A stretch of 63,890 nt of DNA, the filler included, from Perkinsus chesapeaki ATCC PRA-425 (taxonomy: Eukaryota > Protista > Perkinsozoa), in the NCBI GenBank assembly GCA_013115145.1. It is 10 parts of 10 records of this genome, joined end to end, with 100 filler letters (N's around TTAATTAATTAA, not from the genome) between each part and the next. Parts side by side here need not be neighbours in the genome. Positions count along the whole stretch, not along the records: positions 3,399 to 28,626 come from JAAPAO010000529.1; positions 28,727 to 35,059 come from JAAPAO010001095.1; positions 35,160 to 36,768 come from JAAPAO010001870.1; positions 36,869 to 54,046 come from JAAPAO010000686.1; positions 54,147 to 57,891 come from JAAPAO010001362.1; 5 more parts are not named here. One strand, given 5' to 3'. Numbering within the stretch: the stretch's first letter is position 1; the number at the start of each line of letters is the position of its first letter. The position numbers and the translations under genes were made by a program. Shown here one piece after another: positions 8,201 through 55,456 of this stretch. The notes below the pieces were generated by a model. The model saw only the letters and a program-made list of their open reading frames with translations, was not told where the DNA came from and ran no database searches.

Positions 8201-11200
8201 GGCGGAGGAGGCATGTCGAAGTGCTATCTCACCTGGGATGCTGATTTCAAATGGTTCACCTCCGATGATATGTAAGGGGGTTGTCAAAGTTAGCGATATT
8301 ACAGTTTCGAAGATTGATATAGCGGGGGGGCATTCGAGCCAAGCGAGTTTGGAAAGGGAAGATTAAAATTTCTGTACAGACATTTAAATAATCCCTTCCC
8401 GAGCGAGATTGTGGCAAAGCTAATCTTGAAGATTGGGGAAAGAGTAATGGCGTTTTGCAAATTTTGGAATGGTTGCCTGGGGATTGATCGGTGAGACCGA
8501 AAGTCAGAGTGTCCTGGAAACTCAACTCAGCATGGAGAATAGGTTCAAACGAGAAATCTGGGAATTTCAAAGCCCAACTCGCTCGTAATTAGGATTATCA
8601 CTTCTGCGGTTGCATTACGCTGGAAATTTAAGGATGGTTTAAATTGATGATAGTTACGTACCTATTATGTCGGGCGGTTTACTGGCAATGTCGAAGAAAT
8701 GGTGGGATGAGACTGGCGGGTACGATGAGAACATGCTTGGATGGGGCGGAGAAAATATCGATCAAAGTTTGAGGATTTGGTTATGTGGAGGAGAGATAGT
8801 AAGTTATAGGATGGATGGTAGAGGTCATGATTAAAATGAGCCGGGCTATGTTGCAGGAGAATCTAAGTTGGATTATTCATCTTTAATCTATGTAGGCTGT
8901 ACGTCTGATAGCATTGCAATTCATAAATGATTTTTTCACCTGTCTCGGACTTTAGATAACATTCTTGTTAGTGTAGAGGTTCTTAATTAAGTGGCAGTGT
9001 TATTTACGGTGGTATGAGTTTGATGTTTAAAGTATTACCATGCTTGAAAATTTTGTGCGCGCTAAACTCAATAGATCGCTGTAATGATAGTCTTGCAGCG
9101 GTGTGACTCGGCAATTGTCTGATTTCTGAGTAGTAGTAAATGGCGCGTGAAAGTTGTATCGTGTGCAGATCTGCGGAGTTGGGAAAGGAGACTGGAATAA
9201 ATTTGGCTCGTTTTAAAATGGATGTTGTTTTGAGGAGAAGCATCGGCGTTCATTTTACAGGGTGTTGCAAAAATAATCCGGATGAGGAATTTGTTGTTAA
9301 AATAATAATTATCGAATGACTTACGATAATGATTTATACGGCAATAGAGGCATTGTTGCCTTAATTGTATTTTTACCATCATAAACGCATTGCCAGGGAT
9401 GTTAGGCCCTTTGTTGCAGGGCCTTCTGAGAAACTTCATTGTAGCTCGTTCGCAGATGAAATAGTTATCGTGGTTCAGCGGAATAGGAAAATAATCGGAT
9501 TCGGTGATATTGTTGTTTGTACTATTCTGTGTAGGTGAATGCCAAGGACTCTTACGTCGCTCATATGTGGAGATTGGCGAGTCGACCGAAGACTCGAGCA
9601 AAGTATACAGTGCCGGGTGGGGCTGTTACTACTAATAGGTAGCAGCAGCTTTGGTGAGATTATCTTCACTGCGCCACGAAATTAAGGTATCGAGCGGCGA
9701 TGGCGTGGTATGATGAGTGGTTGGAGAAGCTCGAGACGTATCCTGAATTCTCGCAGTTCGCACCGGGAGGGCTGAGATACAAGGATAGGCCGGATATTAG
9801 TAAGGGGGGGTTACGCACTGTGAAGAATATCTTTTCATGATACAGGGNNNNNNNNNNNNNNNNNNNNNNNNNNNNNNNNNNNNNNNNNNNNNNNNNNNNN
9901 NNNNNNNNNNNNNNNNNNNNNNNNNNNNNNNNNNNNNNNNNNNAGGGGTTACGCACTGTGAAGAATATCTTTTCATGATACAGGGGTTACGCACTGTGAA
10001 GAATATCTTTTCATGATACAGGGGTTACGCACTGTGAAGAATATCTTTTCATGACAGAGGGGATACGCACTGTGAAGAATATCTTTTCATGATACAGGGG
10101 TTACGCACTGTGAAGAATATCTTTTCACGAGTCTTCTCCCCCCTGTGCCATCTACTTCTTCAGGCAATATCTTAGAGGTGAAGGAAAGACTGAAATGCAA
10201 ACCGTTTGGTTGGTTCTTAAGGAGGTAATTTCGTGGCGCGCGGGAAATCGGCCAGTAAAATTGTTAGGTTTAAGAAGGTCTATTTTGACGGAGGATTGGT
10301 CCCTGATAAAGTATTCCACTTAAAGGACCAAAGCACTAATATGTGTATTGAGAGAAAAGGAGGTGAGAGGATCCAAGGCTGGTATTAAGTCTCAAGTATG
10401 GAGAGGAAAGGAGGTGTAGAACAATATACAATATAACTATTAACGAACTTGAACACTAGTATATTATTAACGATACGTAGATACGTATGATACGGTGGTG
10501 TGAAGCTTCTTATCCTTATTTATAGAATATTAGCAAATTTGAAGTTGCCTTTGAAGTTATAAATAGTATTTATGGTTTAAGCTTCATATAAGCTATTTAT
10601 TAAATAGCTTATTTTCTGTCTAAAAATCGGTTTTGTAAGCTGGAATTCAGCACCGTTTTCTTAGTTAATTCATGGAGAGTTCTTAAGTAGTATCGATTAT
10701 AGTTTATTTTCCAAATTATTGTGAATTCCATACGGAATTTCTAAGACGTTTTATTCCTGTGAGATTCTTGATTGTTCAGGCTCCAAGGTGGTGCTGCGGC
10801 CGTGCTCCGAGCAGTCGCCGGGTCAGCTGTGGCATGGGGCAAACCGTGATACTGTCACTAACAAATGTTGCTCGTCATTCCGGTAAGGACGAGGGTTCGA
10901 TCCCGGCACATGTCATTTTTAGAAACTGGAATACTGATCAGTGTCTTCAAGTCGATTCTATTGGAGGGCAATTGGATACGGGAGTTTGCAGTACTTGGGG
11001 AGAATTCACCAGCCAATGGATCAAGTTGGATGAAGCTTCACATCAACTGTAAGAAGACCCGGGTTCGAATCCCAGGTAGGGTATTTTTCTGTCATTTTTA
11101 GGCAACTTGCTCCGGGCGCCTGGGCGAAGGGGCGTGCTGGCTGTATAGGTGGTAAACGACCAAAGGGCACAGAAGTGTCTCTGGAGGATTGCGAAGACCC

Positions 11201-14200
11201 GAATTTCAGGCAAATTTTCAAGGTAAAATTTCGAAATTTTTTTGTGGGAAATTATGTATTTTAGGTTGATGAGAAAACCGGTGGTATTGTCGATGTGCAG
11301 AACGGCGAGTGCCTTACGGCAGCCAGCGGGAAGTTCGAGCTGTCACCGTGTGATGTTGATATTGATACGGGAAAGGTGACCCGAGGAAGGAGGAATTTTT
11401 ATTAGATTGTTTTTATTTGGAAAAATTTTGCGCAGAATTGTCCCTATAAATTTTATAGGTTTCTCGATTAGCATTTTTATTTTTGGGGAGGTCGGTAATA
11501 TTTAAGACCACGGAAATATATAGGAGCATCAAATGATGATGAAAGTTGGGCTTTATTGTTCCGGTTTTCCATCTTCCTTTGTAGGTTAGCGGAGAGCAGA
11601 AGTTCACCTTGGTGGATTTCGACGGCAAGACCCGGATAGAAGCCCGAGATATCGGCAGCAACCCTTTATGTGCCGATAGTGCATCTGGCACACAATTGCT
11701 TTTGTACAGTTGTTATGATTCCAGTGTAAGGAGGAAGGGATGTTCATAAGCTTTATTAGGAAATGTGATTTTTTGGTGTCACGATAGTTATAGTTGATGA
11801 AAATGAACACGCGTCGTCGGGTAGAACTGTTATATTTAAATATATTGGTGATCATCTCTTCGTTCGTATTGACAAGTAATTGTATATTTTAGTATCGATT
11901 ATGAATTCATATATCTTTAAAATTAATCATTATTCGATAAATAACATTTTTCGGTAGTCGCTTCAGATCGTTAGTCTTATTTTTTCAGTACCACAATGTG
12001 AACCAAGCCTGGCAGTTCTCCGACAGAGTCAACGGTGGTGCAATACGGTAAGTTTCTGGTTTGTTTATTTTCCGTCACGGTTGTGGTTCAGGTTTTCTGG
12101 GGGATCGAATGCAGGAAAGTGTTTCTCGGTGAAGAATGAAGCAAAGACGTCCCAATCGGTGAGTGGCGGAAAAATGACTTTTGGTTTTCGTTAAAAAGCG
12201 TTATGGATTTGATATGGTTCATGTCACCTATTATGTATATTGATTTTGATGTGATGCTTCCTGCAGAAATGGCTAGCATGAAGGATCCTTTTGATTCTTC
12301 TGTTAATTAGGAGAATAATTATATAATTATTTCGGTGCTCGCTGAATTATTTCGGTTGATTGCCCTCAGCTTTGTTCTGGATGCACGCATGCGTTGACTT
12401 CCTACCGCGCGCGCCATTTGACATGGTCCAATGAATTGAACTATTATTATTACTACTCGATACTGTGATCGATGAGATTTGTGTGGAGAGATGCTTCACC
12501 ATCTCCGGTCGAATTAAAGCTTTTTCCGATCAATTCAAGCACTGGAATTTACCTTATTTAAGAATTGGAATAATGTGCATTTTCCCGTTGTCGTTAAATT
12601 GACCAGCAAATGGTGTATAACGCATCTGAGGATACTTCCGAGGTGCTCATTTCTGTGGATGGGTGGTTTTTCTTTAATTGCCAGCTCGATAGCTTTTCAT
12701 TCGAATGTGGCACTATTAATCGTACGGGTCGGGCGCCGTTGTCACAATCTCGATTTCAGTTTTTTTTTGCAATTTTGTCGCATCGTTTCGACGGCAAATC
12801 TTTGTTGTAGGTTGTATTGGAAGGTTGCATATCGGATAATGGTATAACGAAATATGGTCAAAGATTCAAGAAGGATCTTCTTGGTAGGTTAAAGCTTGAC
12901 TTTTGTACAGTTCAAGGGTTTTCGTATTGTCGCAAGAAGAGAGTTACGGTATTTAAATCCAAGTTGTGCATTTAATCTTCACTGGAAACTTTTGTAAGCA
13001 ACATCTCTTTGGTGAAAAAATATTTTTTTTGTGTAAAATTTGACGTGAAGTGTATTTCCAATGGAACTGCAATGTGAAAATTCGTACGCACTGTTTGCGT
13101 GATTGAGCAACCTTGCGGCGTGCACACCACATGAAGGCTCCTTCGCCCTGTGCTACTTTACATTGTAAACAACATGCTGCCCGTTAAATTCCTTTTGGAA
13201 CAGCTCAGACCCTCTCATTATGAGTATTAATAATATTTGATTAAATACTTATTATTATTATTATTGTGAAAAAATAATGTATTTACTCTTCTACTAGATT
13301 GGCATTGCTCTTCAGTGCGACAGTTACCTGACTGGGAGAGTGTTAGTGTTCTTCATACTTGATATTGTCCGCAGTATCGAATCCCGAATTTTTCTGGCAT
13401 TGTGGATGATATGATATTTATTAATATTAAGATAGATTTCGAACTTGTTAATGTTGCCTTACTTCTTGTTCAGGTAACGGTAAGTTCTTCACACTTCGTG
13501 ATGGTAACTGGTGTCTCGGTGCTGAGGAGAAGACGGGACTTTCGGTAAGGCATGGCTTGTTAGCGCTTTTGCTGTATGCCGGAGATATGTATATTTTTTA
13601 TAGCGATTATTAATATCTTGAAGTATGCTCATGTATGAAGCATTTGCAAATGCTTCAATAGAAAAGTGCCCATTCACGACGCGTTCCAATTAGTTGCGCA
13701 GATCACTTACAACCGAGTGCTTGCCGGTATAGGTATCACAGTGTGATGATGAAGCGTCCTCACAGCAGTGGGAATATACCTCCTATAAGGGGTTAGTTAA
13801 CCAAGAGTCAGGATTGTGTTTGGATGCAGGCGGAGGAAAGAGTGTCCAATTGTAAGTTGTGGGAAAGATGGTATGAAATTATAGCAAATGACTGTTTTGT
13901 AATTTCAAACTTTTCATGTTGTACTTACGGGTGTTCCGTCTTTTTACAAACGATTTGGATCCGGGTTTTATAATCGGGCTTCGGGTTTTCGGGTTACTAT
14001 TAAAAGCATATCAAGTCGCACTTCGTTCGGCGGTGTTGTATATTTTGTACATTTGTCAGATATACCTGTTACAGTGATGGGAGTAATCAGAATCAAGTTT
14101 GGGAGATGAACGAGGCCGGCTTTATTCGAGGCGGTCCCGACAGGACGTGCCTCGATTTTGCTCCGGTAGGCTGGTAATTTCGTGGCGCGCGAAATAATTC

Positions 14201-14911
14201 TTGTCAGGTGTCGGATGCGCCATTAAGTGCTATACAGTGTTCTCAGGCCAAGAACTTTAAGTGGAGTGTTTACAAGCCTTTTGTAAGTAAATTGGATGGC
14301 CGATAATTGCAAGTCGGGTTTTGGGTTTTGAGAATCGGGTTTCGGGTTTTGAGAATCAGAGCAATTAGTTATTATAGTACTTGTATTATAATGAATAGGT
14401 ATAGGAATCAGATGTATTAGTGATTATTAGCAGTAGCGATCTGGGTGGTATTATTTGATGAGATCTAGCACTGAAGAGTGTATCGTTCTCGACTTTTTAA
14501 TTCAAAAAGTCTAAAACAATACACACAACAAAAAATTAATCATTAAATTAAGATTTTGACCGTGTTATTTATTTTTTCTATTAAAAGTTATAATCATAAA
14601 ATTGACTTGGTAGTAATCGGTTATAATAATTTGTAGTTTTAAACTGCAATGATAGTTTTATTTAATAATACAGTAGCCGTGGGTCTACGTATGGCTTTCG
14701 TGTCGAGTGTAAAATTTTTATTTCGAAAATTGGCTTAATTCGATTCTACATCACGACGGTTGCTTGCCGTTCATCAGTCAGACAATCTACACTAGGGATT
14801 CTAGTGCACTTTAACAAAGCCGTCTTTTTTTAGGAGCCATTGGAGACTACCCTTTACCATCAAGCCGAGAAGAACTACCCTGCGGTTCTTGCCAGCGCGG
14901 ACGTTAACTAA
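5246..14911 (+). CDS. GALNT: Polypeptide N-acetylgalactosaminyltransferase (GT27) with an extended ricin-B lectin region; more than 20 exons, 5' end not resolved
   Basis: In-frame exons: 5246-5316 (..KISV), 5823-5912 (VLPCANEGEFMVKT..), 6785-6849 (VVVDDGS), 6900-6961 (GLINAKSKG), 7367-7474 (IIFLDCH, DxH motif), 8145-8271, 8654-8798 (GGYDENMLGWGGEN..WLCGG), 9535-9638 (VAHMWR), 9687-9799, ~10168-10224 (LKCKPFGWFL), then lectin exons, and a last exon 14834-14911 ending TAA. One junction near 12045-12090 did not join cleanly by eye. Confidence 0.9.
7878..7947. repeat. Intronic 31-bp inverted repeat with a 7-nt loop
   Basis: TGTAGAGTTGATGTTATTGAGTTGGTTTGAA ggctgca TTCAAACCACCTCAATGACATCAATTCTAACA. 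Confidence 0.85.
9804..10127. repeat. 38-bp minisatellite inside a GalNAc-T intron, spanning an N gap
   Basis: Unit GGGGTTACGCACTGTGAAGAATATCTTTTCATGATACA, near-identical copies on both sides of the gap 9848-9943. Confidence 0.95.
10883..10922 (+). other. 40-nt intron consisting mostly of a tRNA 3'-end fragment
   Basis: GTAAG gac GAGGG TTCGATC CCGGC ACATGTC A TTTTT AG; flanking exons join in frame (CCSSFR/NWNTDQC). Confidence 0.7.
11049..11101 (+). other. 53-nt intron with a tRNA 3'-end fragment
   Basis: GTAAG aagac CCGGG TTCGAAT CCCAG GTAGGGT A TTTTT..AG; exons join in frame (HQL/QLAPG). Confidence 0.75.
12562..12733 (+). repeat. 172-bp dispersed repeat, copy 1 (intronic)
   Basis: Near-identical to 15713-15884, with a few substitutions. 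Confidence 0.9.
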
Positions 14912-15042
14912 GCCGCTGGGAGAGTTGATACTGTACATTGATTTCTGAATCGAATCAAATTACCGAAGGCCTTCTACATTTTGGCTTCCCTCTAGATAAT
15001 TGAACTTCTCTAGCCGTTCCTTTATTATTCCTGTTTGTTGGG

Positions 15043-15089
15043 TTGGCAATGGTCGTGGGTTCGAATCCTGGTAAGGGTGTTTTATGTAG
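15043..15089 (+). other. tRNA 3'-end fragment immediately upstream of a splice acceptor (donor not pinned)
   Basis: ggtc GTGGG TTCGAAT CCTGG TAAGGGT G TTTT atgtAG. Confidence 0.6.
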
Positions 15090-18000
15090 CCTGGGCGATT
15101 GGGTGAATATGACTGGCAGCCCTCCGCCGGTGACTTCATCCGGCGAGCAAATGCAGCTTTACCGCCAGAAACGGGCACTTCAAGGTTTGCTACGGAAATG
15201 GCTGGACAGATTAGTTTCGAAAAGTGTTGTACAATCGAATAGTAGAGGTGAGCAGCCATCGGAGCACCCGGGTTCGAGTCCCAGTGGAGCGTTTTTTAAT
15301 CAGGCACAGGTTTGAGTTCTCGCGAGCTGGAGCTGCTCTGGACGAATCTTTTCGGCGTTTCTGGTTCCGATTCTGTAAACGAACTTCAATTTTTACACGC
15401 CATTGAAACTAGTGAAGGTTTTCCGGACGAGTGGACTTACAGAGAGAAGGTGAGTGGGAGCATCGGGAAGGGTATTGTAGAAGCGTGGATCACTGAAGGA
15501 GTGCGGTGGAGATATGGCTGGGAAGTGCATTATTTTTGGCTGCTTTCTGGATCGTTCCGGTGTAGGGTTGCTGTGCTGATCAATTAGCTTGTCATTTTTG
15601 CGCATTTGTCTACGACTGGTTTGGGTGTCATGACGAATCATACCGGCTATTGTGCGTTGGTAGAAACATTATGGATAGTGTTGGGTTTAGCTCTGGTTAG
15701 AATCTGGTTTTCGAATTGGAATAATGTGCATTTTCCCATTGTCGTTAAATTGACCAGCAAATGGTGTATAGCGCATCTGAGGATACTTCCGAGGTGCTCA
15801 TTTCTGTGGATGGGTGACTTTTCTTTAATTGCCAGCTCGATAACTTTTCATTCGAATGTGGCACTACTAATCGTACGGGTCGGGGTATTCTTGGATTAAT
15901 AGATCATTGATTTATAGTATCATTTGACTCATAATAATTAACAAAAATCATTATACGACTGCTGTTGGTAGCTCCGCCGGGTCTGTGTTGATTACAATAA
16001 CGTGGTATTGATCTATACCTGTTGATAGTGAAACTGAAACATGTGTGGAGTTGGAGGAATTATGTCAGTTGGATGGGATGGAGTATCTAAGGACACATGG
16101 CTTCGTTTAGGAACACTAATTAGTTCTGGCTGGATGATAGTGTATTAGACTGTCAACAGGGATTCTTGTACTAGTATGAGTATGGTCCAATACCAGTGGT
16201 ATTGGTTTATAGATACTGTTCATAAACCCCTCTGCAAAATAATGGAACATACCGTATTTTCTCGATATACCGATAGAGCGAGCGAGAAACACGTCACTGG
16301 TATGACTACTCTATTTCGTATATTATAGTCACTGAACTTACAAAAAATCATGATTCAACACGCAATGTTGAAGAATAATCGAGAAAATACGGTATGTTCC
16401 ATTATTTTGCAGGGGCGCTTAGTAACCAGTTTATAGCGTGCATTTATCCCTCAGGTTGATTTGTATCGACTGCTGTGGTTTTCATGCTGCGACTCCCTGG
16501 AAGGCATGAGTGTCTCGTCGTTGGAAGCTGCCTCTCCCAGCGAGCTGTCGTCTAAGCTTAGACTTGATCGAGATGATTGGCTGAATTGTAAAGTGCTCAA
16601 GATGCTGCCAGGTAAGCAGCTGCTGAGGTTTAGTTCCTTTAGTCAGTTTCGTTGCAATGTTTCCCGCGGGACGTTGGCTTGTATTTCCCGGGACCGTTTC
16701 TGTTAGTTCCGAGCTGCGTATTGTAGACGCAGCAATCGTGTAGGTATGTGATACCTTTGGAGACTATTTCTCGCCATGACATAGCTCACAGAAAGTTATC
16801 GATGATTAACCGTATTGATTCTATTTACGATTATATTAGAAAAACTTTTGTCGCAAAAGGGGGCACAACACAAACTCATCACATCGGTGATGAGTCCCCT
16901 TTTGGTATAGTAGGACTAACTCATCACATCGGTGATGAGTCCCTTTTGGTATAGTAGGACTAACTCATCACATCGGTGGCACACTCAGCACAAGAGCGTT
17001 GCATTATCTCCTTGATGTGATAGCTGATGAAACTTTCAGAAAATCTTGGATTTGTAGAAGATAGTCTGATAGAAATTGTAATTTGTAGAAATCCTTTTCC
17101 AGATTTTTTGGGAATTATTCTACATCAGTTTAGTGGCCAAGTTCGCGAGTTTCTCCGCTCCTTTCTAATCTAGTTGGCGATTGTAGGCATCAGAGCATCA
17201 TCCAAGCACGCAGGCGGCCGCATTGCACACACACGATTGCTAAGACCTACGGCCTGCGGTATTGTGTCGTATGCCTGCAGAAGGCTGCAGTGTCTATCTC
17301 AGCACTGCTGGTATTGCTATCCCGCAATCCTTTCTATTATTTCGTGCTCGTTCTCCAGTTCATCTTTACTCTTTCCCTTTTGCGTTGCTACATTGTGACT
17401 TTGTTTAATAACTGTCGGCGCCGGGGCTCGAACCCGATACTGTTAGGTTACAAGTCTCATTTTTTTCAGCTAACAATCCGAAGTACTCCTTGTCGCCGAC
17501 GGTTTCTTGTGATAGTATTGATACTATTGCCGCGGATGTGGCGCGAGCTGTAGCGTACCGACGGGAAGATCTGTAAGAAGGGTATGAATCAAATTGTGAA
17601 AAAATAAAGAATTCATAAATACTTTTATTAGGATTCATAATTTATGAATATGTATAGATTATATTAATTATTAGTTATATTCTCTATATATTAATATATT
17701 TAATAATATCCCATATTATCTATATTATATTGGTATAGAGATCTATAGTATATTTATAACTAGTTATATGGCGGTCCTTAGGATCTTAGCTTTTCTGTGA
17801 AGCACGTTTGTTGTTTACGGCTGAAACTTTTCGGAGTTCCTCGTTTTCTTTGCAATCGCAAGTCGCGGTCAATGATGAATTTGTTTATCTGATTTTTGTT
17901 GGGTCTTGCCTGGAAGTAAGGAGTATCGGAGGTTCTACAAGGCTTCCTGCTAGAATGATGATGATAAAGTAGAAGTGGCAGAAGCCCACTGGACTGCGAC

Positions 18001-21000
18001 GGAATACGCAACAGCAGGTGGCCGAGTCTTTTACTCGGCAGCGCGTATGATAGGAAAGATATACTATATAATATAACGTGATCTCTACTATATGCCTTGT
18101 GTGACCAAGCTCTGCGGCTAGGTATCGTGGGAGTCATGCAAGCAACGGCATGCAGGATGACCCGTGCACTTGAAGCTTCAGGCCCGTAGTTCCGCAAACC
18201 GTACCGTATCGAAAACCGTAATTCTGCTAATCTATAACTATATATCATACAAGGTGACGGAACTGCCGTCTAATATTTATTTCAAACCGCATGAGAGAAT
18301 TCGTGGCGCAGTTTTTGAGCGCTCAGCGAGCTCTTTCCAATGCTGATTCATATTCGTAAAACAGGCTGAGTTATAACTAAACGAAAAAGAGCGTTTAATG
18401 AAAAACAGTGGTTGCAATTTTGAAAGTGTATAACTTTGAAAACATTCTAATAGGCTGGATGGTAAAGAAGTAGCATTGGTTTCATTTAGAGTGATGCTGG
18501 ATTTCACCGGCAGCGAGCTGTCGTCGGCGGAGGAAGTGCAGCTACTGCCGGCTCGGGCGTATAGATTGGCTTTCATACGGCAAGCAGTTGGAAGGCTTAT
18601 TGAGGCGTATTGCCAAGATACTCGAATACCTATGATGTGTAAGAATGGGGGGCTGTATACTTCGCGGTTTCATGGGGACTCGTTGGGGTTAATTTATCTG
18701 GCACTGGAAGTAGTGTAAGAATGGGGAAGTCTGTAGACTTGGCGGTTTCATGGGGACTCGTTAGGGTGAATTTATCTGGCACTGGAAGTAGCTGGGGGTC
18801 CTTTTCCGGTGGATCGGGGGTGTGTAGAAGGATGCAGGTCGTTGGGGTTGTGTCAACAATTTTCTAGTGTCAGCTTGATAGCTCGACTATCTAACATTTG
18901 GTTAGAAGCCCTCCATGGTAGTTGCCTCGTATCGCTCAGCCTCAAGGGTAGTCCGATGGCGGAATCCCGAGTCTCAAACACGAAGGATAATCTCGAGCTT
19001 GGACGTGGCCCCACTGCCCATGCTTTGTCCTTTTGCCGTGATGGTAGTATCACTAGTATTAACAGAATGCGAATTCTGTTAATAGAATTAGAATTCGGAT
19101 GTCATTAGAATTCAGCACCAGTTTGAATTACACAACGGTTTCAGCGATGCTCTTACTCTTTGGGAAGGTTGATCTGGTTAAGAGACTTTTACCAAAGGAA
19201 GCATTCACAGTTTATAAAATCTTACTTTCTAATAAGAGTGTCATATTGATAGAGAAAAACAGACTGTTTTGAACAGTATGACTACCATAGGGGCCGTTCA
19301 ATTAGCCGATTTTGAAATCCAGAATCGATTCCAGAACTGCTTTTTACACGCAAAAGACGATGCAGCTGGAATCGATCCTGAATCTCAGAATTGGTTTAAT
19401 GAACAGGGGGACAGACAAAGGTGAGGTACCCGTGGATAGTACGTGTCTTGATTGGTTGTTGGTCATGTTATTTCTATTATTTTCTCAGCTGTTGTTCCTC
19501 CAGCTGCACCTTCAACACATGTTGGAAGCCGTAAAATCCAAACTAGTGTCGGCAGCAGCAGCAGCACGGTGGTGAGTCTGGGCTCGATGAGATCTGTCAG
19601 TAGGGTGAAGATCAATATTCTTCCCGATGTGATTCTTCCTTTCGTTTGTAGTAAGTAGAGTCTTGGCGAGAACACCAAGGCCAAAAAATGTGCATGCATA
19701 TTTCTATTTTGTGAAAAGGAGTGTCGCTGGCGAGAGCCGTACTACTGTATCTATCAGCCAAGCCGAAGCAAAATTCAGCTTTCAGTTGTTATTAGAAACT
19801 GATTAAGCTTCATCCACTTTGTTTCGTCGAATGTATTCACTTTCTAGTATGATATTACCCCTACTGTGAGTCACAGTCCACCAAGGTCCACTGTATACAG
19901 TCCAAGGCGTCCACAGTGACACCTTGCCCATGCGTATTATAATTATCAGTTGCCAACTACAATAATACTCAATGAGCTTTTAATGAGACAAACTAAATAC
20001 AAGAAAAACTGTAAAAATAGTGAACCAAGGCCGTTTTCGGAGTGCGCAAAAAACATCGCTCCGCTGGAGCCGCGCGAGACTGTTGTTTATTTTCAGTCAT
20101 CGGTGTATGAGGGCCCTTGGAGGACCGACGCATTGTGTGAAGCATGCTTGATGTGGGATAGGAGGTATCTTAGGGTCGACTAACGGATTCCGGGGCAGGG
20201 GTTCGAACCAGATACCGTTAAATTGACAGTCGCGTATCTTCTAAACAATCAATCCGAAGTGTGTTGTCCCCGACGGTGTCATGTAAAAAATATTACCGCG
20301 CAAATTTCTCTCACCATTTTGTATTTTATCATTCGAGCTGTGAATGTGCTAGAAAGAGGCTTATACCCTCACTTTCTAGCGGCGCCATTGAATGGTTGTC
20401 TACTTGTGCGTATCTTCATGAAATGCTGAACGTGCGGATGATAGAAAAGTGGCTGGGTTGGATGGAGTGTTTTTCTTACAAACTTTCCAACTCAAAAAAA
20501 CGAGGAAGATATTCTCGATTTAATGGGGGGCGTATAGTTCACTCCGTCCTTTTTGGGCACTTAAACGAAATTTGAGATTAGCCCAGGATGAATTAAATAT
20601 GATACATTACGCTTAGTTTGACACAGGTGTCTAAATGCTGTCCAGTTAGGAATCAAGTGAGATTAGTTCTCGCGGCATCTTTCACCCCCGTCATTGCTCA
20701 CCTTCAAAAAACGTGTCAATCTGGCTCGTTAATTACTCCGTTTCAGACGAGTCCAATATGGTGTTCTAGCCAATGGTGATTTCCACACTAACGCTCGGCG
20801 CCTCTTACCTCAATGGATGATGAGAAACCTGGAGGATCGTCGTCGGACTGGTAGAAGGTGATCGGTATTAGGTCGCCAGTTGTTTGTTCAGGTAGGGATG
20901 GTCTTTCGAGGAGGCAGGAGAGTGTTATCGGGTAGGTGAGGGGAGAATTGGAGCGTGTGTTCGTACGTCCGAAGGTGATGAACCCGTCCACGAAATTGTA

Positions 21001-22714
21001 TCGCATACAGGAAAAAGAGTTTGGCATTTTCGCTCGCCCAGTTTTCGCTCGCCCAGTCACATTTAGTGAATCTACCAAAGATGGCGCTTCCGTAAAATTA
21101 TATCGCACATCGCATACCGCCAAACATTTCGCTCTAGCGACCAGCGGTGGCCGGTAGTCTCCGCAACATTACAGTTGATTATTCCTGATAGTGTATCATA
21201 GGTTACCATTATGCAGTCTATTAGGTCACTGTCTTTCGAGTTCTTTGCTCTGTCAATGGTTATTATAACAGTTGTTTTTGATGGTAGGAAGAATCAAGGC
21301 TTCCCTCTAGCTTAGCGTCCTTTTTGCTTACCACAAATTGTGATGACTAAAATGCCTTATCTGGTCAGTATGGTATATCGAAGATGATCAGGTCACATAC
21401 GGTTGGAGAAGTCATAGGAAATCATGATGAGAGGGAATGGCGGAAATCTGCCGGTATTTACCATCTCTTTGGCGTTATCTATTTTTACCATTGGCATAAT
21501 GGCTGGCACAGGAAGCAATTCTTCTCATCGGGCAATTGTCATTTGCTTGGCAAGGTCTTCGTTCTGCGGTCAAAATATGACCAGTGGAAGAGCTCAGCTC
21601 GGGTCCCACTTTCAATTCATTTGTTATTAGTGTTGTTGGAGGATCCGAGATTCCCGGTGTACTTGTTAATTGCCCAATCTAGAGATAAACTAAATTTTGG
21701 GAGAACTTCGAAAAGGTCATGTGCCACCGATGTATAGCTTATAGCTGACTGAGTGCAAGTAGCCCTGGTGTAAGCTTTCATGATGCGAGTAACATTCAGT
21801 TTAATAATATCTTAGTAAATAATAGTGAATTTTAGTAAATATATATTTAGTATTTATAATGAGTAAATAATATATAAATAAACTAATGTAATAACAATAA
21901 ATAGAATTAGTAGACGCCCGTTGCAGTGTAATAACCTACTCAACGCTGTAGTCGGTGGCCGGCTAAAGTTGTCATTGGTGGTCTTGCAGCTTTATGTATT
22001 TCAGAAAGACCCTCCGACGTCCCCTCCGTAGTAGATTATGCCTCCTCAACGGTAAGGGAAGAAACGAGCTCGTCTAGTTGCTCGTCGTATCTTGTGGGGG
22101 AGAACGTTGAAGTATTGAAGGCCCTGCCGATCAGCAATAGGAAATCTAGACGGCCGACTGAACCCAGCACGCCTCGGAACAAAAAGTTAGTTAGTGAAGC
22201 TGAGCGAATGACACCTCCAAGTGAAGAGCGCGTCGGTATGAAGGTCGAGGATTCGTCGCCTGAGAGCGAGAGCGCATCGGCGGCAACCCCGGTGGAGTCC
22301 TATGCTCCTCCTGCCGCCGTTGGCAAATACCGGTATAGCAGTATTGAGAAGAGTCGGCCGTCTAGTATGTGTGGCTTCGAATTGCCTCCAGCGGTGACAG
22401 GGAGCGCATCGATGGTTAGTAGTGTGAATTCGTGGAGTGAAGGTCGGCGAGGATCACAAGTTAGGCCTTCTCGGTGGGACGAGGCTTTATCAGCGCAATT
22501 CGGCAACGTGCGGCAAAGCAGGAGAGAATCTGACAATTTCAGCGAGAAGATACGCGTGTCGCTCACTAGAAAGATATCGGAGAGTGTCGCTGGAGAATCA
22601 TCCAGAGCAGGAAACAGCGATTCTGTGATTGAGCCATATTTGGGCGAGCGGAGCGAAGCGGAAATTCAAGCGCTTCCTGATGGTGCGTTATTTTCGTTTG
22701 GCATGAAGGAATGA
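15090..22714 (+). CDS. Putative multi-exon hypothetical gene (may be more than one gene)
   Basis: Exon-like blocks with splice sites at 15090-15247, 15304-~15448, ~16457-16611, ~18490-18640, ~19497-19573, and a long Ser/Glu/Arg-rich terminal exon ~22005-22714. Only the first junction was verified in frame; no family recognised. Confidence 0.4.
15248..15303 (+). other. 56-nt intron with a tRNA 3'-half-like fragment
   Basis: GTGAG cagccat cggag cac CCGGG TTCGAGT CCCAG TGGAGCG TTTTTT aatcAG; exons join in frame (SR-G-TGLSS). Confidence 0.75.
15713..15884 (+). repeat. 172-bp dispersed repeat, copy 2
   Basis: Near-identical to 12562-12733. Confidence 0.9.
16223..16421. mobile_element. MITE/foldback element, 199 bp, possibly nested
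   Basis: Perfect 35-bp inverted repeat 16232-16266 / 16378-16412; the outer end TAAACCCCTCTGCAAAATAAT resembles the 4109 element; inner TA-CCGTATTTTCTCG...CGAGAAAATACGG-TA. Confidence 0.8.
16873..16978. repeat. Tandem repeat of 44-45 bp (about 2.4 copies), each unit containing a 9-bp hairpin
   Basis: Unit AACTCATCAC ATCG GTGATGAGT CCC(C)TTTTGGTATAGTAGGACT. Confidence 0.9.
17413..17500 (-). pseudogene. tRNA-shaped element (88 nt); possible Phe(GAA) relic with a 16-nt intron; D-arm/A-box degenerate
   Basis: Acceptor GTCGGCG/CGCCGAC+A, anticodon stem GTTAG/CTAAC, T-arm TCGGG TTCGAGC CCCGG; no D-stem pairing and no downstream T4 terminator. Confidence 0.55.
18657..18793 (+). repeat. Local direct duplication of about 55 bp
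   Basis: ACTT(C/G)GCGGTTTCATGGGGACTCGTT(G/A)GGGT(T/G)AATTTATCTGGCACTGGAAGTAG occurs twice, about 79 bp apart. Confidence 0.85.
19057..19084. repeat. Perfect 12-bp hairpin with a GCGA loop
   Basis: TATTAACAGAAT GCGA ATTCTGTTAATA. Confidence 0.85.
19308..19392. repeat. Imperfect inverted repeat of about 32 bp with a 21-bp spacer
   Basis: GATTTTGAAATCCAGAATCGATTCCAGAACTGC ... GCAGCTGGAATCGATCCTGAATCTCAGAATT. Confidence 0.75.
20188..20274 (-). pseudogene. Second, more degenerate copy of the tRNA-shaped element
   Basis: Aligns to 17413-17500 (ACCGTCGG.GACAA..ACTTCGGATTG..TAAC.GTATC.GGTTCGA.CCCC); similarity extends about 35 nt upstream. Confidence 0.5.
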
Positions 22715-23042
22715 AGATTTGTTATTCCAAACATGTTGAGGATAAGTTGGTTGCTGTTGTGTTGAGTGATTCAATTTTCGTGTGAGGAATCACACCGCAG
22801 ATTTTTGTGTCACAACTTGTCCCGCGGATATCCACCCAAGTTTCGTGCGCTCTCTATTACTAATATATCTATTTCCTACTTTCTTACTACTTACGTACTC
22901 TTACTATTGATAGGAGCCTTTTCGGCGCCTTGCTTGAGATATGTCCTCTGTGCTGTACTTGGCGCTAGCTCGCCGGTGAGTGGTGCATGGGTCACTCAGC
23001 TGTTGTGTGCTAGTTATTAATAGGTGGTAGAATTATGAAGAT

Positions 23043-23874: not shown

Positions 23875-24512
23875 AGCATTTCTGGCGTGACAGGCACAAT
23901 TAACTCGATGTTCGAGTGTTATATAAATGTTTCTTAAACTACATCTCCTAGTCTTGCGTTACTCATAAAAAATGGCATGATGCCACATTCGGCCGGTTCT
24001 CAGACGGTTGGATGGCGTGAATGGCAGCGTGAGTTTTCGTTGTTTGCTGCTGTTCGTGCGAAAGGGGAAGCAAGAAAGATATCTTTTACCATCGCACTTT
24101 ACCCTCGCAATGTAAATTAGCTATGCGCGCGTGTAAAATATAGCTGCTCGTACTGTTGTTCGTTTTGCGCCGCGAAGTCAAGTAGCTCAGCAGAGCTTTT
24201 GGCTTCCCTTCTCGCCTTGTAGCCGTCTTCATGAACCGAGCAACAGACGTGAGATGTTGACTTAGCTCCTTCCCAGGGACGGCGGAAGTGCTAGTATGCT
24301 TGTGAATCTAATAGAGATAACTATTTATATTCAGTTCTATCATATTGGTATTGTGCTCTCAATATCGCGCTCGTTGGAAAGTGGCGCTAGCTCGAAGCTA
24401 GTAGCTCCAACTGAGCTAGCGTGTAGGACATCAGCTGTTCGTTAGAAAGATTGGTGACTAGGTAAATTAAGCTTGTTGTTCTCGTGTGCAGTGTTTTCAA
24501 GTTTCTTTCAAT

Positions 24513-34764: not shown

Positions 34765-34766
34765 CG

Positions 34767-48200: not shown

Positions 48201-51200
48201 CAGGGTTTATCACTTCACAGTGACTCCTGTATAATCCATTTCCCTATCTATTACCAATGTAAGCCCTCCTCTAGCTGATCGATCCTCCCCTCCCTGTATC
48301 GCTGAGCCAATAGCTATTACCGATGTTGGATCTGGAAGACCTACAGGAGAATACATTTCTCAGAGTCCCAATCGGCAAGCTGTCGAGTAGCCGTTTATAT
48401 ACGAAGGGATCTAGGTACGCTTAACGGTATGGTGGCAATATAGTATTTCATACATTACATACATTGAAGTCCAATATTTATAATCAATGACATTCCGTAT
48501 ACATAGTTATATGTTTATCAAATACCTTACTGGTGGATACATCACCATTATATAAATGATCATATTATATAATACAGTACGCGTCATCTAGAAATGCGCA
48601 AACTTGGCGGGCAGTTTTCTCAACACCCATAACGAGTTCCCTTCTGATTCCTTCACCGTTGAAATCCCCATACTCGATTACCCAAGAATCCAACTTGCGC
48701 AGTTATATATGTATTATTATTAAACACTGTACAACATACATTATTACACATTATTATTAAATACATGTCTGACGCACAGTCTAAGCTGGCACGAAGGTTA
48801 ATAGAAATAAGTTCCATCAACTTTCAGAACGATATTGCGGAAAAAGCAAACAGTATGACCTTGATGTCCATTTATTATATACCCACAGGAGGATCATATA
48901 CATTACTATTATGTATAAGTATTATAGAAACCACTTTCATTATTAGATGGTTTCTCATCACACGCACTGTTGTTATTAACAATATGACAACTAAGATATT
49001 CAACAATTTGTAAAATATCTTACTATTGAATACATTACCACTAATAACGGCCGATTCGGCAGAGCATAATGCTTATTTATTAGTGAATGAACTAGTAGCA
49101 GTATTATATATTATTATATATTAATTACAATACTATTATATACGTTGGTAGTATTATCCCCTCTCCCTCCTCCATAGTACCTTCCATATCAGACATGAAT
49201 GTAGCATCCAAGATGACCTCATCCGGTTTCATCCTGTACTGAGCCAACACCGTCCCTGAATCATTCAAAACAAATGCCAATCAAAGACAATGGCATCATC
49301 ACGGTGACAAAAAGCCTACAACTTTACACAATACTGAAATAACCTACCCCCGGGGTCCTCTACTACCCCACAGTGCACGCTAATTTATTTAAATTATTTT
49401 ACAATAACCAGTACCAATATATACCTATGCAGATATATATTATACTAACATCGTTATACTTGCCCTATCGCGAGAAAAAACTGCTTCGCTCCGCCTGCCC
49501 GCCCAGTTACTACTCATATCAGCTCTCGATACAACTCGTAATTGATAACGATCTCGCATCCTCACCACCGGACACTCATCCTTAGCCATAGCCGTAGGGG
49601 CAATCATATCCTCTATGGAGAAGTCACCCGTCGACAAACCTAACCATGCATTCTCACAGTCACGCGCCGCTTAATTCTAGGTACCGCTCTGCGCCGCAAA
49701 TTCCTGTGATAGTTCCAAAATGTGCTCCGGCAGCCCGCTCGCCTCCTGGTGGTCCCACTCCTGCCGCGTCGCAACAACCGCCACGGCCGACGCGCCGCCA
49801 GCACACAAATGTGGTGTCTCCTGCACATGAGTGATAAACTTATTATGTAACAATATGACAAGGTACTTGCTGGCCGGAGGCGGGAATTAGGGCACATGGA
49901 ATCGGTCTGGCAATGTCGAAATGGATTATGCCAGACTCTAGAGTCGAGCGGTCTTCAACTGCTGAGGCCTTCTTGGATCTGAAAAAGAGGAGTAGGCTGG
50001 AAGGAGCTTGGATTCGGTAAAAAGAAGGGTTGCTGCTGCTATTGCTGCTGTGTGAAAATGACGATCCGAACAATTGCCTATAAGTGATCGATGCAGCTAG
50101 ACTCTAGGTCCAAGAGTCTAGACTCTAGGTCCTTCCTTCTGGCTTCATAAGTGTCCCTATGTGAATCCCTAGTCCACTAGTGTCCCTATGTGAATCCCTA
50201 GTCCACTAGTGTCCCTATGTGAATCCCTAGTCCACTAGTGTCCCTATGTGAATCCCTAGTCCACTAGTGTCCCTATGTGAATCCCTAGTCCACTAGTGTC
50301 CCTATGTGAATCCCTAGTCNNNNNNNNNNNNNNNNNNNNNNNNNNNNNNNNNNNNNNNNNNNNNNNNNNNNNNNNNNNNNNNNNNNNNNNNNNNNNNNNN
50401 NNNNNNNNNNNNNNTATGTGAATCCCTAGTCCACTAGTGTCCCTATGTGAATCCCTAGTCCACTAGTGTCCCTATGTGAATCCCTAGTTCACTAGTGTCC
50501 CTATGTGAATCCCTAGTCCACTAGTGTCCCTATGTGAATCCCTAGTCCATTAGTATCCCTTCCTGAGTGAATGATGGGCACTTATATCGATAGTAAACTT
50601 GATATTACAGCACCCATAACAGACTATTCCACCTCGCGACATCAACCCCTCACCATCTTGTTCAATTAATAAATATAAAACCAGTAAAGCAGCAAGCTGG
50701 AGGTATGTGCACACCCTTACTCAACCGTAAGCCAGCGCTGCTTCCACCGCCGACATGCTCTTCAATAGTCGCACAGACTTCTAACCAATCCGGCTGCCAA
50801 GCCACAGGCCTTACCTCTCCTCATCTTCATGATCATCACCATCTACACCTCCCATTAATACGTCATGGTCATCTACCGCCATTGCTGGTCCGTCGACCTG
50901 ACATAAATACACTCACAGAGAATCGTACCAAAGACCTTCCGATACACAGCCCGGATTCTTACCACTACGCCATTTACTCCCTTATCCTTCTCGAACGAGG
51001 AGGCTTCTTCATCCTCGCCTGCTGGAGCTTGGAAGCTCGAGAACTGGTAGAGCACCAAATCAACGTCAACTGAAACACCCGAATAAACCACCTCATCGGA
51101 ATGTCACTTCTCACCCTTCTCAACATCATCCCCGCTGCTCGCCAGCTGAACTGTTATCAGCCCATCCGGATTGTACTTCGTGTTCAACGCCGCTGCCGAT

Positions 51201-53520
51201 ACCGTCCCTGTTGGCCCAACAGGATGAACGAATCTGACGTCATGCGAACGACCCTGGTTCAAATCCCAGTGAGGGCCTCTTTTCTTTACATCTCTTCGCT
51301 GCGGCTCTTCACAACAACTAACGGTGGTGCTCGAGCACTCGGTATCAACAGCAGACCCTCCTCCTCGTACGATCCCAGTTTCTCAAACCGTGTTACCATC
51401 GCCGAAGATGTCTAACAGTATCCATAGGGCCCTGGTTCAATTCCCAGGCCCTCCATTTTTACCCAAATAGGTGTGTCTTCCGTCGATGAGTTCATCTCCG
51501 CCACCAACCCGCAGTTCTTATGCTCCACCATTTGGAACGAGTACGAGAAGCTCTCCTGCAGCGGCCGCCCTGGGCACGGGAATGACCGATATCTACAACC
51601 AAAAATGGCCCATTTTAAATGGGGAACAAAAAACGCTTCGCTCCGCCTACATCAGTGGCGGCCTGTTCCGTATCATGACAACCAGCACTGGCAGGTCTCC
51701 AAGCCAGTGCAACTGCACCGCTGCAACCACCGACGAGGCGTCTATCGGCGGGGGAGCTGCCGGCGGGGCAATCGGCCTGACAAAAAAACTTCGCTCCGCT
51801 AGGATTCTTCACCGATATTCACCTCGAGGTTGGATCAGTTATCGAAAGGAACAAGTTGGTCGTCTTCGGTCTCGGATGCATCAGCGGTGGCGCCACAGCG
51901 ATGCACGCAACATCGAAAACAAGCACTGGAGGCATCGATGAGACATCATAGCTGAGACCATGAAAAGTATCCAAAATCTTCACAGTGCGAAAAAACTCCC
52001 TTACATTTTAACAGCGCTGGTCTCCTGCTCCACCAAGGTAAGATACGTCGACATTTTCCCCCCGCTAACATGTGCTGATGCCCACAGTGGCGGAGTCGAC
52101 GAGTCAGAGCCTTCCGGAACTCCAATATTGTCCGTCGGGATATCCTTGAACGAACCATCAATGTGGCGGAACAAGCCCAATGTGCCTGTCCGAGTAGGAT
52201 AACAAACATCTTCGACCACCAAAGATGAAACCTTGCTCGAGAGTTTGATGAAGCGAAAACGAGCAATGTGAAACGCTCTCAAAAGGGAGACATCTGCCTC
52301 CCTCTGCTATCCTGCATGGTGACTAGCGGGACTCTCCTATAGTCGCGAACCATTTCTCTGTCAACCAATAACTCCGATTTGATATCCACACCATCAGAAG
52401 CACCGAAATCATCTCCGCCACACACTGTTAAAGATCGGGTTTTCCCTAATTCGTCCAGCTTCGTTTGCGACCATTATAAACAAGTGACAAGTCCAGGGAT
52501 CGAACCTGCGTGTGTCTTACCATCGTCCATGACTGCAGCGACGAACTCCTCATTGATGCTCGCTTGCTTGCACGGCATACCAAAGTGAAGGACCATCTCC
52601 GCAGTCGACGAGCCCACAGGTAACCGTCGTACCCCCAGCGGTGTAACCTACATAATTTCGTGGCGCAGTGACGATGAACCGCCTGCTCACCATATAGTAA
52701 CACCCTCCCATTTTCCCAACATCCAATGCGGATTCCGGCGTCCGGAAAACCTCGCTAATAGACGAAGTCAAATCCAACAGTACTGAGCCTTCCTGTGTAC
52801 CCAGACTCAATACCTGAGGAGCAACAGCTAGAGGTGTCAGAATAATATCCATGCGACCACGAAGATGAGTTACATCATCTACACAGGGATATAGGTCAAC
52901 CCAGCAGCCCTTGAGCCTCTCCACCTAAGACCTTAACACTCGGGGCGATAAGTAAGTAGCTTTCAGATTCTAGAGGGCAAACAAAATACGTCTTCGGGTA
53001 GTAACTAGCTCAGCTAATGTAATTCAGTTGGTAAGTTGTTCTCGGTGATTCTAGAAAAGGAGGAAATGACAGGAGTAATTTCATATACGGTAGATTGCTC
53101 CCCTCCATCATTAACCCTACCCTACGTAATTTCATATACGGTAGATTGCTCCCCTCCATCATTAACCCTTCCCTACGTAATTTCATATACGGTAGATTGC
53201 CCCCCTCCATCATTAACCCTTCCCTACGTAATTTCATATACGGTAGATTGCCCCCCTCCATCATTAACCCTTCCCTAGGTAATTTCTCATTAATAATCAC
53301 TACCAACTGCTACATAACCAAGCTTCATCAGAACAACACCTCACTGAGTTGAGAGACACTCAAAAAGTGACTCGCCCAGTCGAGTTCGAACTTCTTCTTG
53401 CCATTCATTCACGTTCTATTCCCGCGCCTTAACTTACCCCGTATTGATATTCACCATCATCAATCGCCCATAGTGAACTACTTCGTAAGGTATCCAAATC
53501 GATCGAGCTGGATACAGAAC
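45300..53520 (-). CDS. CPSF1: CPSF160/CPSF1-like (DDB1/CPSF-A beta-propeller family), many exons; N-terminal exons absent from this contig, 3' end approximate
   Basis: Exons encode YMVTPLGVRRL..ASINEEFVAAVMDDG, LIPSARAPPLVVVKSRSEEIFVHPVG, KRGPVTSVRPWRQHLIISIGFRIFMYKW and ITSLCTVKNYILAGDAIRGLQF, collinear with recalled CPSF160 sequences. Confidence 0.75.
45601..45835. repeat. 38-bp minisatellite, about 6 copies
   Basis: Unit AGGTTAAC(A/G)AT(T/G)GTAAAGTAGCATAAACTATAAAATAC. Confidence 0.93.
46424..46757. repeat. Compound repeat built on ATCAACACT, spanning an N gap
   Basis: Alternating ATCAACACTATCAACACTATTATGG and ATCAACACTAACAAGG units. Confidence 0.93.
50150..50560. repeat. 29-bp minisatellite spanning an N gap
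   Basis: Unit AGTGTCCCTATGTGAATCCCTAGTCCACT. Confidence 0.95.
51234..51289 (+). other. tRNA 3'-end fragment filling a 56-nt intron of the minus-strand CPSF160-like gene (antisense)
   Basis: CCTGG TTCAAAT CCCAG TGAGGGC C TCTTTTCTTT-AC; exons join in frame (SEE-I-FVHP). Confidence 0.7.
51412..51462 (+). other. tRNA 3'-end fragment filling a 51-nt intron of the CPSF160-like gene (antisense)
   Basis: CCTGG TTCAATT CCCAG GCCCTCC A TTTTT-AC; exons join in frame (TPIW/TSSAM). Confidence 0.72.
52446..52520 (-). other. 75-nt intron of the CPSF160-like gene with a sense tRNA 3'-end fragment
   Basis: GTAAG acacac GCAGG TTCGATC CCTGG ACTTGTC A CTTGTTT..AG; exons join in frame (MDD-G-KTRSL). Confidence 0.62.
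53075..53286. repeat. 51-bp minisatellite, about 4 copies
   Basis: Unit GTAATTTCATATACGGTAGATTGC(T/C)CCCCTCCATCATTAACCCT(A/T)CCCTAC. Confidence 0.93.
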
Positions 53521-53563
53521 CTGATAATATTATGATTTTAAAAGATCTAATGTAAATCGGACC

Positions 53564-54046
53564 ATGCGCTTTCTCAACAAGGTTTCACTGCCAACCCCCG
53601 AGGCGGTTGCTGCAGTGGCGCGAGAGTACTCCAGGACAACAAGGACAGTCGACATTAAGTGGTGGAAATCGGACCATGCTTCTGCCTACAGGCAGGTACC
53701 TTGCAACTGTGATTCTCATAAGGTGGGTCCAATCCTCAGCCGAGAGCTCGTCAAGTAGTTGTTTCTACAGGTAACGGTCGTTCTGCTTAGAGATCCTTCC
53801 AACGGAAAGGCCGCGGCTTTCTACCACGTTGCTCAGCCGTTTGGGGCCTCCAGCTCCGTAATTAATTATTGCCGCGTTTCGCAAGCCCTGGCCCATCTGG
53901 GGAGGGTAGTCCTGGCGGTGCCCCTAGTCAATTTTCTGGATGATTATTTCGCGCCAGAGCGCGCTTCTTCCGTGGAATCTGGCTATGAGGCTTGGCGGTG
54001 GCTCCATGAGATTCTTGGTTGGACGTTGAAAGAATCGAAGTGCGTA
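53564..54046 (+). mobile_element. DIRS/Ngaro-like reverse transcriptase fragment, with an apparent 48-nt spliceosomal intron (53723-53770)
   Basis: KSDHASAYRQVP..QPFGASSSVINYCRV..VNFLDDYF..LGWTLKESK; the only stop codon lies inside the GT..AG segment. Confidence 0.72.
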
Positions 54047-54355: not shown

Positions 54356-55456
54356 ACCCCTCCTCGTGAGGCTGGCTATGCCCTGGCATGTACCCCATCT
54401 TATCGGGTTGGCCTAACAGAGCCTCCCGAATGTAGCGGACAAACCAACGAGGCTGACACCATGATAAGCCTTTACTTCAGCAACGTGTATATCGAACAGG
54501 AAGTGTAAGAGCCTGCCGCCCGGGTTCGATCCTCGGCAGGGTCATTTTCAGTGGATTTACTCTGGCCATTCAAGTGGTGAATCCTGGAGCCGCGCCGCAG
54601 CCTGATCCGGAGACAGGTCTCAGCGGCAATGCGTTTGGTATTGTCGTTAGGGACAAAGAAGGGAATACTATTGATGCTAATATGATGGTCGAAGGAATGG
54701 TAAGCGCAGCTTCACGATTCTATTGGCAACTTCATCTGCCTTATGCGAGCAAGGCAGTAAGATGAGCAGCAGCCGAGTGGGCTGTGAGCTGAGCCCACAA
54801 TGTTATTGTTGTTGCCGGCAGGGAATAGTATTCTTGAGCTCCGGAGCTAGTCCCGTCTCGCATGGCTTTAAGAGCTTCAACGTGGACTACTTCATCACGG
54901 TTTTCCACTAGAGACCGTGGCAGCACTATCAACTTGGGCAATTGTACAAATGTGTTTGCGTTATTGTATAAAGTTATTCGTGCACTTGCTAATATTACTC
55001 TTTAATCCTAAACTAATTGTTTCTCCCGATTATCTGTCCAAAGTATCGGTCATTTAGGACCTCCTCAATATCCCACTGGTTGGCTTCGCTCTGGCATGGG
55101 ATTCTGTTGAGGCTCAAAGCGTATCTAAGCTGCAAGTTGTTCTCAAGATTACCCGGAATATGAATCCGGGAGAGGTTCTTGAGCTACAGGTGAGTATGCG
55201 ACCATTCCCGCCTCACACTACCGTGTCAGATTGAAGCTCCTCAAGACGTGGCGTTCGCCGCACCTTCCAGCGTCGTGCTGCCTGAGAATCTTCCGGCCTC
55301 GGATGTTGCTCCGGTGGGGTTATTTTTGCTGTTGGTAAGCTGATCGTTATTCAGGTATCGGTTGCTGGAAATCGCCTCATTATTCGTCTCAATAGGGAAT
55401 CTGAGACGCAGACATTAGTGGGAACCACACAAGTCAACGGCCTCCGGGAAGGAACC
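54356..55456 (+). CDS. Multi-exon hypothetical protein fragment (beta-rich, extracellular-like)
   Basis: Exons 54356-54504, 54552-~54698, ~55058-55188, ~55230-55313 and ~55355-55456 with canonical splice sites; the first junction was checked in frame. Confidence 0.55.
54505..54551 (+). other. 47-nt intron with a tRNA 3'-end fragment
   Basis: GTAAG agcctgccgc CCGGG TTCGATC CTCGG CAGGGTC A TTTT CAG; exons join in frame (EQEV/GFTLAI). Confidence 0.75.

Follow-up and report, generated by a model that had tools for sequence, protein, structure and literature searches.

The DNA considered here is a window of 63,890 bases from Perkinsus chesapeaki ATCC PRA-425 (assembly GCA_013115145.1), and the elements in question are apparent pieces of tRNA-gene 3' ends, here called tRNA tails, that lie mostly in small spliceosomal introns of its genes. 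All counts refer to this window only and not to the whole genome. Two host genes are annotated. A polypeptide GalNAc-transferase with lectin domains, an enzyme name that is based on Pfam accessions, occupies 3934..14911 on the plus strand with 26 annotated introns, and the annotated part of CPSF1 occupies 44826..52852 on the minus strand with 22 introns. The gene-model proteins that define these 48 introns, P0165 for the transferase and P0001 for CPSF1 (a CPSF1 protein named for Perkinsus chesapeaki), are identical letter for letter to exons of the window, and the CPSF1 junctions of the gene model agree with the P. olseni and P. marinus proteins. The window leaves out the 5' part of CPSF1, the last exon seen being at 53435-53530. 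A candidate multi-exon gene, unannotated, spans 15109-20300 on the plus strand and hosts three further tails; a search for homologs of its first exon (15091-15246) found none.

tRNA tails in the window

The initial annotation had described eight T-loop motifs in introns, and all eight were found where it had placed them. The tRNA numbering and the labels B-box and A-box used here follow common usage. The geometry that had been claimed was reproduced: TTTT begins at tRNA position 74 in five of the eight copies, with discriminator A in four of them and G in one; the other three T-runs, said to be off by 1-2 nucleotides (nt) or interrupted, start at position 73 (15272) or 76 (51257) or are broken (52505), and position 72 is C or T in seven of the eight on recount. 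Position 48, an unselected feature, is C in all eight of these copies and in 74 of 113 real tRNA ends. With two copies added here the set comes to ten, nine with the perfect core GGTTCRANYCC and one with a single mismatch (54524). A further perfect core, located at 34686 where a retrotransposon open reading frame (ORF) ends, is without tRNA flanks and was excluded.

Enrichment over shuffles, which had been put forward as a check, holds within the window both for the core and for the core followed by TTTT. The perfect core occurs 10 times against a mean of 0.39 in 300 local dinucleotide shuffles, none of which reaches 10. The motif with TTTT at positions 74-77 occurs 6 times against 0.07 (0/300), a count that is inflated relative to whole-window shuffles by the T-runs that often stand near the acceptors, and the A-runs that often follow the donors, of these introns. 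The looser GTTCRANYC of the initial annotation occurs 15 times against 7.7 (5/300 shuffles). Four of the five cores in the two annotated genes sit in the 1,052 base pairs (bp) of introns of at most 70 nt, out of 19,002 bp in total (P 4.5e-5), and the 5,469 bp of exon in these genes contain zero cores.

Two of the tails lie in the GalNAc-transferase gene. A 40-nt GT-AG intron at 10883..10922 (plus) carries a sense tail with G53 at 10895, whose TTTTT followed by AG is the acceptor, 27 nt from G53. A 53-nt intron at 11049..11101 (plus) carries a sense tail with G53 at 11063 and TTTTT at position 74. The acceptor position of the first intron is common to another Perkinsus (P0166), a sequence that ends at the donor position of the second. 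CPSF1 hosts three tails. The 56-nt intron at 51234..51289 and the 51-nt intron at 51412..51462 (both minus) carry tails antisense to this minus-strand gene, an orientation that the initial annotation did not mention, and the terminator there serves as a GTAAAA donor. In the former, G53 is at 51257 (plus strand) and the T-tract lies within the donor GTAAAGAAAAG; in the latter, G53 is at 51435 (plus strand), TTTTT with AC forms the donor GTAAAAA 27 nt from G53, and the intron position is shared (P0030). The third CPSF1 intron, at 52186..52520 (minus), is 335 nt long and holds a sense tail adjoining the donor, with G53 at 52505. It had been drawn as a 75-nt intron at 52446-52520. P0001 gives the longer extent, the same junction is present in the P. 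olseni and P. marinus proteins, and 52446 as an acceptor is ruled out by P0001 and by the junction of the orthologous proteins.

Four further copies lie in candidate introns, all on the plus strand. The unannotated gene has a 56-nt candidate at 15248..15303 with a sense tail (G53 at 15272), and a 47-nt candidate at 54505..54551 has a sense tail with G53 at 54524, one core mismatch (T62) and a TTTTCAG acceptor 27 nt from G53. Both have GT-AG ends and their removal opens one frame, the reading frame being the evidence that they are spliced. The two candidates added here, 75 nt at 17395..17469 and 65 nt at 20165..20229, carry antisense tails with G53 at 17433 and 20208; neither has a T-run, and the T-stem of the former is paired at 5/5 positions. 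The remaining tail is intergenic, at 15050..15089 (plus), with G53 at 15059 and TTTT at position 74. It had been listed as an intron at about 15043-15089, a cis-intron that was rejected here: removal of 15042-15089 opens no frame, and the segment falls between the GalNAc-transferase stop (coding end 14908) and an ATG at 15109. Perkinsus trans-splices, according to the available part of PMC3101222. Given this and its place between stop and ATG, the AG of the segment is likely a trans-splice acceptor, and the segment is more likely a spacer or outron ending there than a cis-intron.

Among the eight segments that had been called introns, the four at 10883-10922 and 11049-11101 (by P0165) and at 51234-51289 and 51412-51462 (by P0001) have exactly the ends claimed for them, and the others are corrected or have the reading frame as their basis. 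Of the nine copies now placed in introns, five are sense and four antisense, and splicing is given by annotated and orthologous proteins for five and by the frame only for four. RNA contigs from two small runs under the same species label, examined over 9950-28620, covered no motif copy. They confirmed two GT-AG introns of 62 and 47 nt, both motif-free, in a glycosyl hydrolase 30 gene at 27801-28103. No Perkinsus DNA was found in metagenome contigs searched with P0006.

Origin from tRNA genes

By their layout the pieces are evidently worn 3' ends of tRNA genes, comprising the variable loop, T-arm, acceptor strand, discriminator and T-run. The register of a tRNA 3' fragment (T-loop, 5+7+1 bases, T-run and tRNA-like flanks) is found in them, and ARAGORN places the end of a tRNA gene at 92 of 125 public loci with the same layout. 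Outside the core, the columns resemble real tRNA ends at 118 of 190 positions against 95.5 +/- 4.1 in shuffles (0/500). Descent from terminator-bearing tRNA genes, that is from DNA, had been proposed and is upheld by these two results, as is the proposed difference between acceptor strands (1-8 of 11 identical pairwise at positions 63-73). The nearest public tRNA ends match the copies at 11-14 of 19 non-core columns at best, which is not diagnostic of a parent. ARAGORN reported 0 tRNA genes in the window and Rfam no tRNA match; a whole decayed tRNA at 51205-51277 was considered and rejected, with no cloverleaf and a fold z of -0.17.

The tRNA gene pool of the genus is large. The available parts of two papers give over 500 copies in five tRNA types for P. 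marinus (PMC3706591) and 2,956-3,684 tRNAs detected per library for Perkinsus (PMC9550989, including Table S2). The former also describes Dada transposons of P. marinus, which cut tRNA genes. Dada resembles the present case in being mobile DNA of the same genus that targets tRNA genes, and it too shows the large gene pool. It differs in that Dada inserts in the A-box, whereas the intron pieces start near tRNA positions 30-41, and neither a Dada end nor a transposase was seen with them, though no search was aimed at these. For Alexandrium, 15% tRNA-derived sequence was obtained by RepeatMasker, in the available part of PMC3229502.

Retention of the B-box core

Perfect cores number 10 against 0.33 in 200 shuffles, with 13 against 10.9 for one mismatch and 137 against 127.5 for two, and 6 of the 13 one-mismatch cores are mirror readings of true copies; the B-box core is without a tail of decayed copies. 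The stem has fared differently. Outer T-stem pairs are intact at 18 of 30 positions in the copies versus 333 of 339 in the 113 real tRNA ends. In a model of neutral substitution with decay rates of 0.05-0.35, in which 9 of 11 copies were taken as perfect, the joint probability of an intact core and a broken stem is at most 4.4e-5, and neutral decay fits this combination poorly. When element stretches were folded, 5 of 7 did no better than shuffles. The copies occur in both orientations, which argues for a function at the level of DNA and not of pre-mRNA. The intact core, the broken stems and the two orientations point to a DNA sequence under selection, as opposed to an RNA fold, as far as the pattern in these copies allows.

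Age of the tails

The comparison with other Perkinsus used ORFs called across introns in genomic contigs, with intron positions read by eye from the protein sequences. Intron positions are shared at 9/9 readable CPSF1 sites and at both GalNAc-transferase sites, among them all four B-box introns that could be compared (10883, 11049, 51412 and 52186). Comparison with sister species had been suggested as a way to recognise recent gains; with the positions shared, recent gain in P. chesapeaki is rejected, and any gain predates the species split. An orthologous intron of 54 nt in a P. marinus-like ORF holds the element of the 52186 intron in readable form. In P0002, 14 of the 18 bases that can be determined at positions 46-74 of the orthologous intron are those of the window copy; outside the core 9 of 13 are the same (P 0.002), and this pair is the best of eight intron pairs (0/150 shuffles). 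The position pair 49-65 is unpaired in both, through different bases. By this comparison at least one copy is evidently older than the split. The feature is real and looks genus-wide: tiny introns hold tRNA-gene tails that appear old and whose B-box is preserved.

Tails as proposed docking sites for TFIIIC

The best explanation, to which we would give an even chance, is that old tRNA-gene tails in short introns have been kept as B-box-only docking sites, predicted to be bound by TFIIIC. Retained B-box-only TFIIIC sites had been named in the initial annotation as an alternative, and with the core intact and the stem eroded this appears to fit better than its proposal that the tails built the introns. 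Tails would have been inserted in either direction, likely before the species split, at places that now lie within short Perkinsus introns. The copies would have been drawn as DNA from the very large tRNA gene pool, since the terminator is present and CCA is absent. The T-run would then have been fixed as a splice signal, a TTTT(C/T)AG acceptor in sense copies and a GTAAAA donor in antisense ones. The 5' half with the A-box would have been lost, so that no tRNA would be made. The 11-bp B-box may still act as a DNA docking site, which is probably why the tail was kept.

These sites would work like the 'extra TFIIIC' (ETC) sites in chromatin layout. ETC sites, known from yeast and mammals, are B-box loci that TFIIIC occupies in the absence of TFIIIB and RNA polymerase III, as described in the available part of PMC12409998. 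Like them, the Perkinsus copies have a conserved B-box (nine perfect cores and one with one mismatch among ten) and no working tRNA gene or A-box partner in the ARAGORN and Rfam searches, loose A-box-like words at two of ten copies aside, and a DNA-level role independent of RNA polymerase III is proposed for both. The putative Perkinsus sites differ in that they lie in 40-75-nt spliceosomal introns with a visible acceptor strand, discriminator and terminator. They may also be far denser, at about one per ten introns (5/48, from two genes) as against eight sites in yeast in the available part of PMC12409998. In a dense gene, introns would be the only parts able to host a binding site without coding cost.

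Several points weigh against this explanation. Among 20 papers listed by one literature search, none contains the word TFIIIC. The sample is small, being ten copies from one window, and the reference tRNAs were mostly non-Perkinsus and were chosen via the B-box pattern (94/116 rows). The decay model had no indels or CpG effects, and a single indel could break two stem pairs. Loose A-box-like words lie upstream of two of the ten copies (15272 and 51257). In the comparison between species, compatibility of P0002 with the core alone gives P 0.051, and two of three readable orthologous introns (P0030 and P0166) have no 11-bp core in their visible part. Similarity between species is also found in one motif-free intron, with 11 bases the same and 7 different (1/150 shuffles), so the shared element attests age more than selection.

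Alternative explanations

The proposal that the tails built the introns was not borne out as made, positions being shared across species and target-site duplications lacking. Creation of the intron by an insertion, and trimming of an insertion within an intron that already existed, are about equally likely, and intron gain in the Perkinsus ancestor is plausible. It is possible, though unlikely, that tails inserted in exons of early Perkinsus became introns that are now drifting without present function; as regards origin this can hold jointly with the docking-site explanation. Splicing would have been immediate, the T-run serving as an acceptor in one orientation and as a donor in the opposite one. 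In three introns, 10883 and 54505 (sense) and 51412 (antisense), the distance from G53 to the intron end on the terminator side is exactly 27 nt; in three more it is 31-38 nt, and the other intron end is 12-36 nt away from G53. The T-run is flush with the acceptor or donor in three introns and near it in three more, and the tail occupies most of a 40-56-nt intron. Other introns carry other short shared pieces, one class each, as old introner families might. However, no target-site duplications were seen in the five annotated B-box introns (boundary repeats of 0-2 nt versus 0-5 nt in the other 43 introns), and the copies are not near-identical. All readable positions are common to other species, motif-free introns included, one copy is probably outside any cis-intron, and drift leaves the intact core unexplained.

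Introners offer the closest comparison for such an origin (available parts of PMC11282704, PMC9860276 and PMC7789003). A short insert that takes up the intron is common to both, the tail may provide a splice signal as introners do, and related alveolates have introners. The Perkinsus tails differ in having a tRNA gene as their source, positions shared between species (4/4), and neither target-site duplication nor a near-identical family, identity being 1-8 of 11 among the copies in the window. The main text of PMC9860276 contains none of the words tRNA, SINE and Perkinsus; its supplements may list Perkinsus. It seems rather unlikely that exonic insertions, in both directions, in the Perkinsus ancestor gave new introns with the terminator as acceptor or donor, and that these were then retained for TFIIIC to dock at, within an intragenic code of at least four classes of intron-borne binding sites found in a third of introns, each intron with a single class.

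Descent of all copies from one tRNA-derived repeat or hairpin is improbable. Such an element would have been either SINE-like or like a minihelix, with the acceptor 5' strand joined to the T-arm, and the mismatched stem would come from the master copy. Short interspersed elements (SINEs) derived from tRNA, and tRNA pseudogene fragments, resemble the Perkinsus tails in being scattered remnants of tRNA that have decayed, contain a B-box and lie in non-coding DNA. The tails differ in that they consist of the 3' third only, end in a gene-type terminator and have divergent acceptor strands. No A-box half, body, tail or target duplication of a SINE was seen, and no body is shared. Four copies do share the 3' stem strand CCCAG and the broken pair 50-64, and two form extended hairpins (z -2.6 and -3.1). 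In-register pairing between positions 42-48 and 66-72 occurs at 26 of 70 places against 16.4-17.5 expected (P 0.001-0.01; post hoc), whereas a shift-tolerant measure of the same pairing shows nothing (P 0.5). Agreement at positions 63-73 is as low between copies as given above. With one master copy, decay would have had to be heavy and yet spare the core, which again implies selection. At 51435, 52505 and 54524 the sequence just 5' of the T-stem pairs with the acceptor strand, in the manner of a 12-bp minihelix or extended hairpin, a signal that is weak and post hoc.

A role of the copies as sources of small RNA or as pre-mRNA structure is highly improbable. Folding is better than in shuffles for two of the seven element stretches, and loose A-box-like words precede two copies, but the copies lie in both orientations, their stems are broken (18/30), and neither a cloverleaf nor an Rfam tRNA match was found. 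Least probable of all is chance, or a binding motif of other ancestry beside the ordinary T- and A-runs of splice sites: such runs are common near acceptors and after donors here, but a chance origin of the motif is largely refuted by ten cores against 0.33-0.39 in shuffles, the exact register in both orientations, C48 in 8/8 copies and non-core columns that are tRNA-like (0/500 shuffles).

Other intron motifs and neighbouring features

Three further motifs, first spotted by eye, exceed all 300 shuffles in number. M2 (ATTTCGTGGCG, often followed by CAGTGA or CGCG) occurs in both orientations at 7158, 9680, 10230, 14179, 18300, 47236 and 52657, six of the seven in annotated introns. It is compatible with the orthologous intron of P0002 (9/1000 shuffles). 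It may resemble an E2F-type site. M3 (GCGGAGCGA, then a T-run) occurs at 51799, 51646 and 49494, which are in CPSF1 introns near the donor, and at 20064 (minus) and 22648 (plus). M4 (TTYGGGTTT, telomere-like repeats) is found in four introns, at 13980, 14320-14341, 45362 and 47094-47118. An A-box origin of M2 and M3 was considered and rejected, the match being no better than in shuffles, and neither is tRNA-like. Across the 48 annotated introns, five carry the B-box, six M2, three M3 (two short, one long) and four M4, that is 18 of 48; none carries two classes, and 12 of the 18 are among the 22 introns of at most 70 nt. None of the four classes occurs in the 5,469 bp of exon of the two genes. 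Perhaps the B-box belongs to a set of sites carried by introns; alternatively, every class could be what is left of an old family of insertions.

Several other features lie in the window. A near-identical segment of about 170 bp occurs at ~12565-12735, inside a GalNAc-transferase intron, and at ~15715-15885; by eye it could be a young mobile element. At 22941-25549 lie two tandem methyltransferase paralogs with identical intron layout, and RNA contigs of a further paralog align at under 95% identity. The retrotransposon ORF at 28904-34714 encodes 1,936 amino acids with protease and integrase matches, and on either side of it, near 28.8 and 34.8 kb, is a repeat that by eye resembles a long terminal repeat. 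Just past the last CPSF1 exon seen is a putative reverse-transcriptase-like fragment, judged by its motif, at 53566-54046. An intronless ORF of the LicD family and an adjoining partial paralog, recognised by eye, lie at 59364-61635.

Significance

Literature searches, which left most subscription papers beyond their scope, turned up no account of tRNA tails in Perkinsus introns. Binding at the B-boxes, if it occurs, would place TFIIIC inside ordinary genes of a lineage adjoining the dinoflagellates, in which little is understood of chromatin and gene control, and would give tiny introns a definite role in carrying DNA sites. Should the tails have made the introns as well, tRNA genes would be a new source of spliceosomal introns, one that needs no transposase family.

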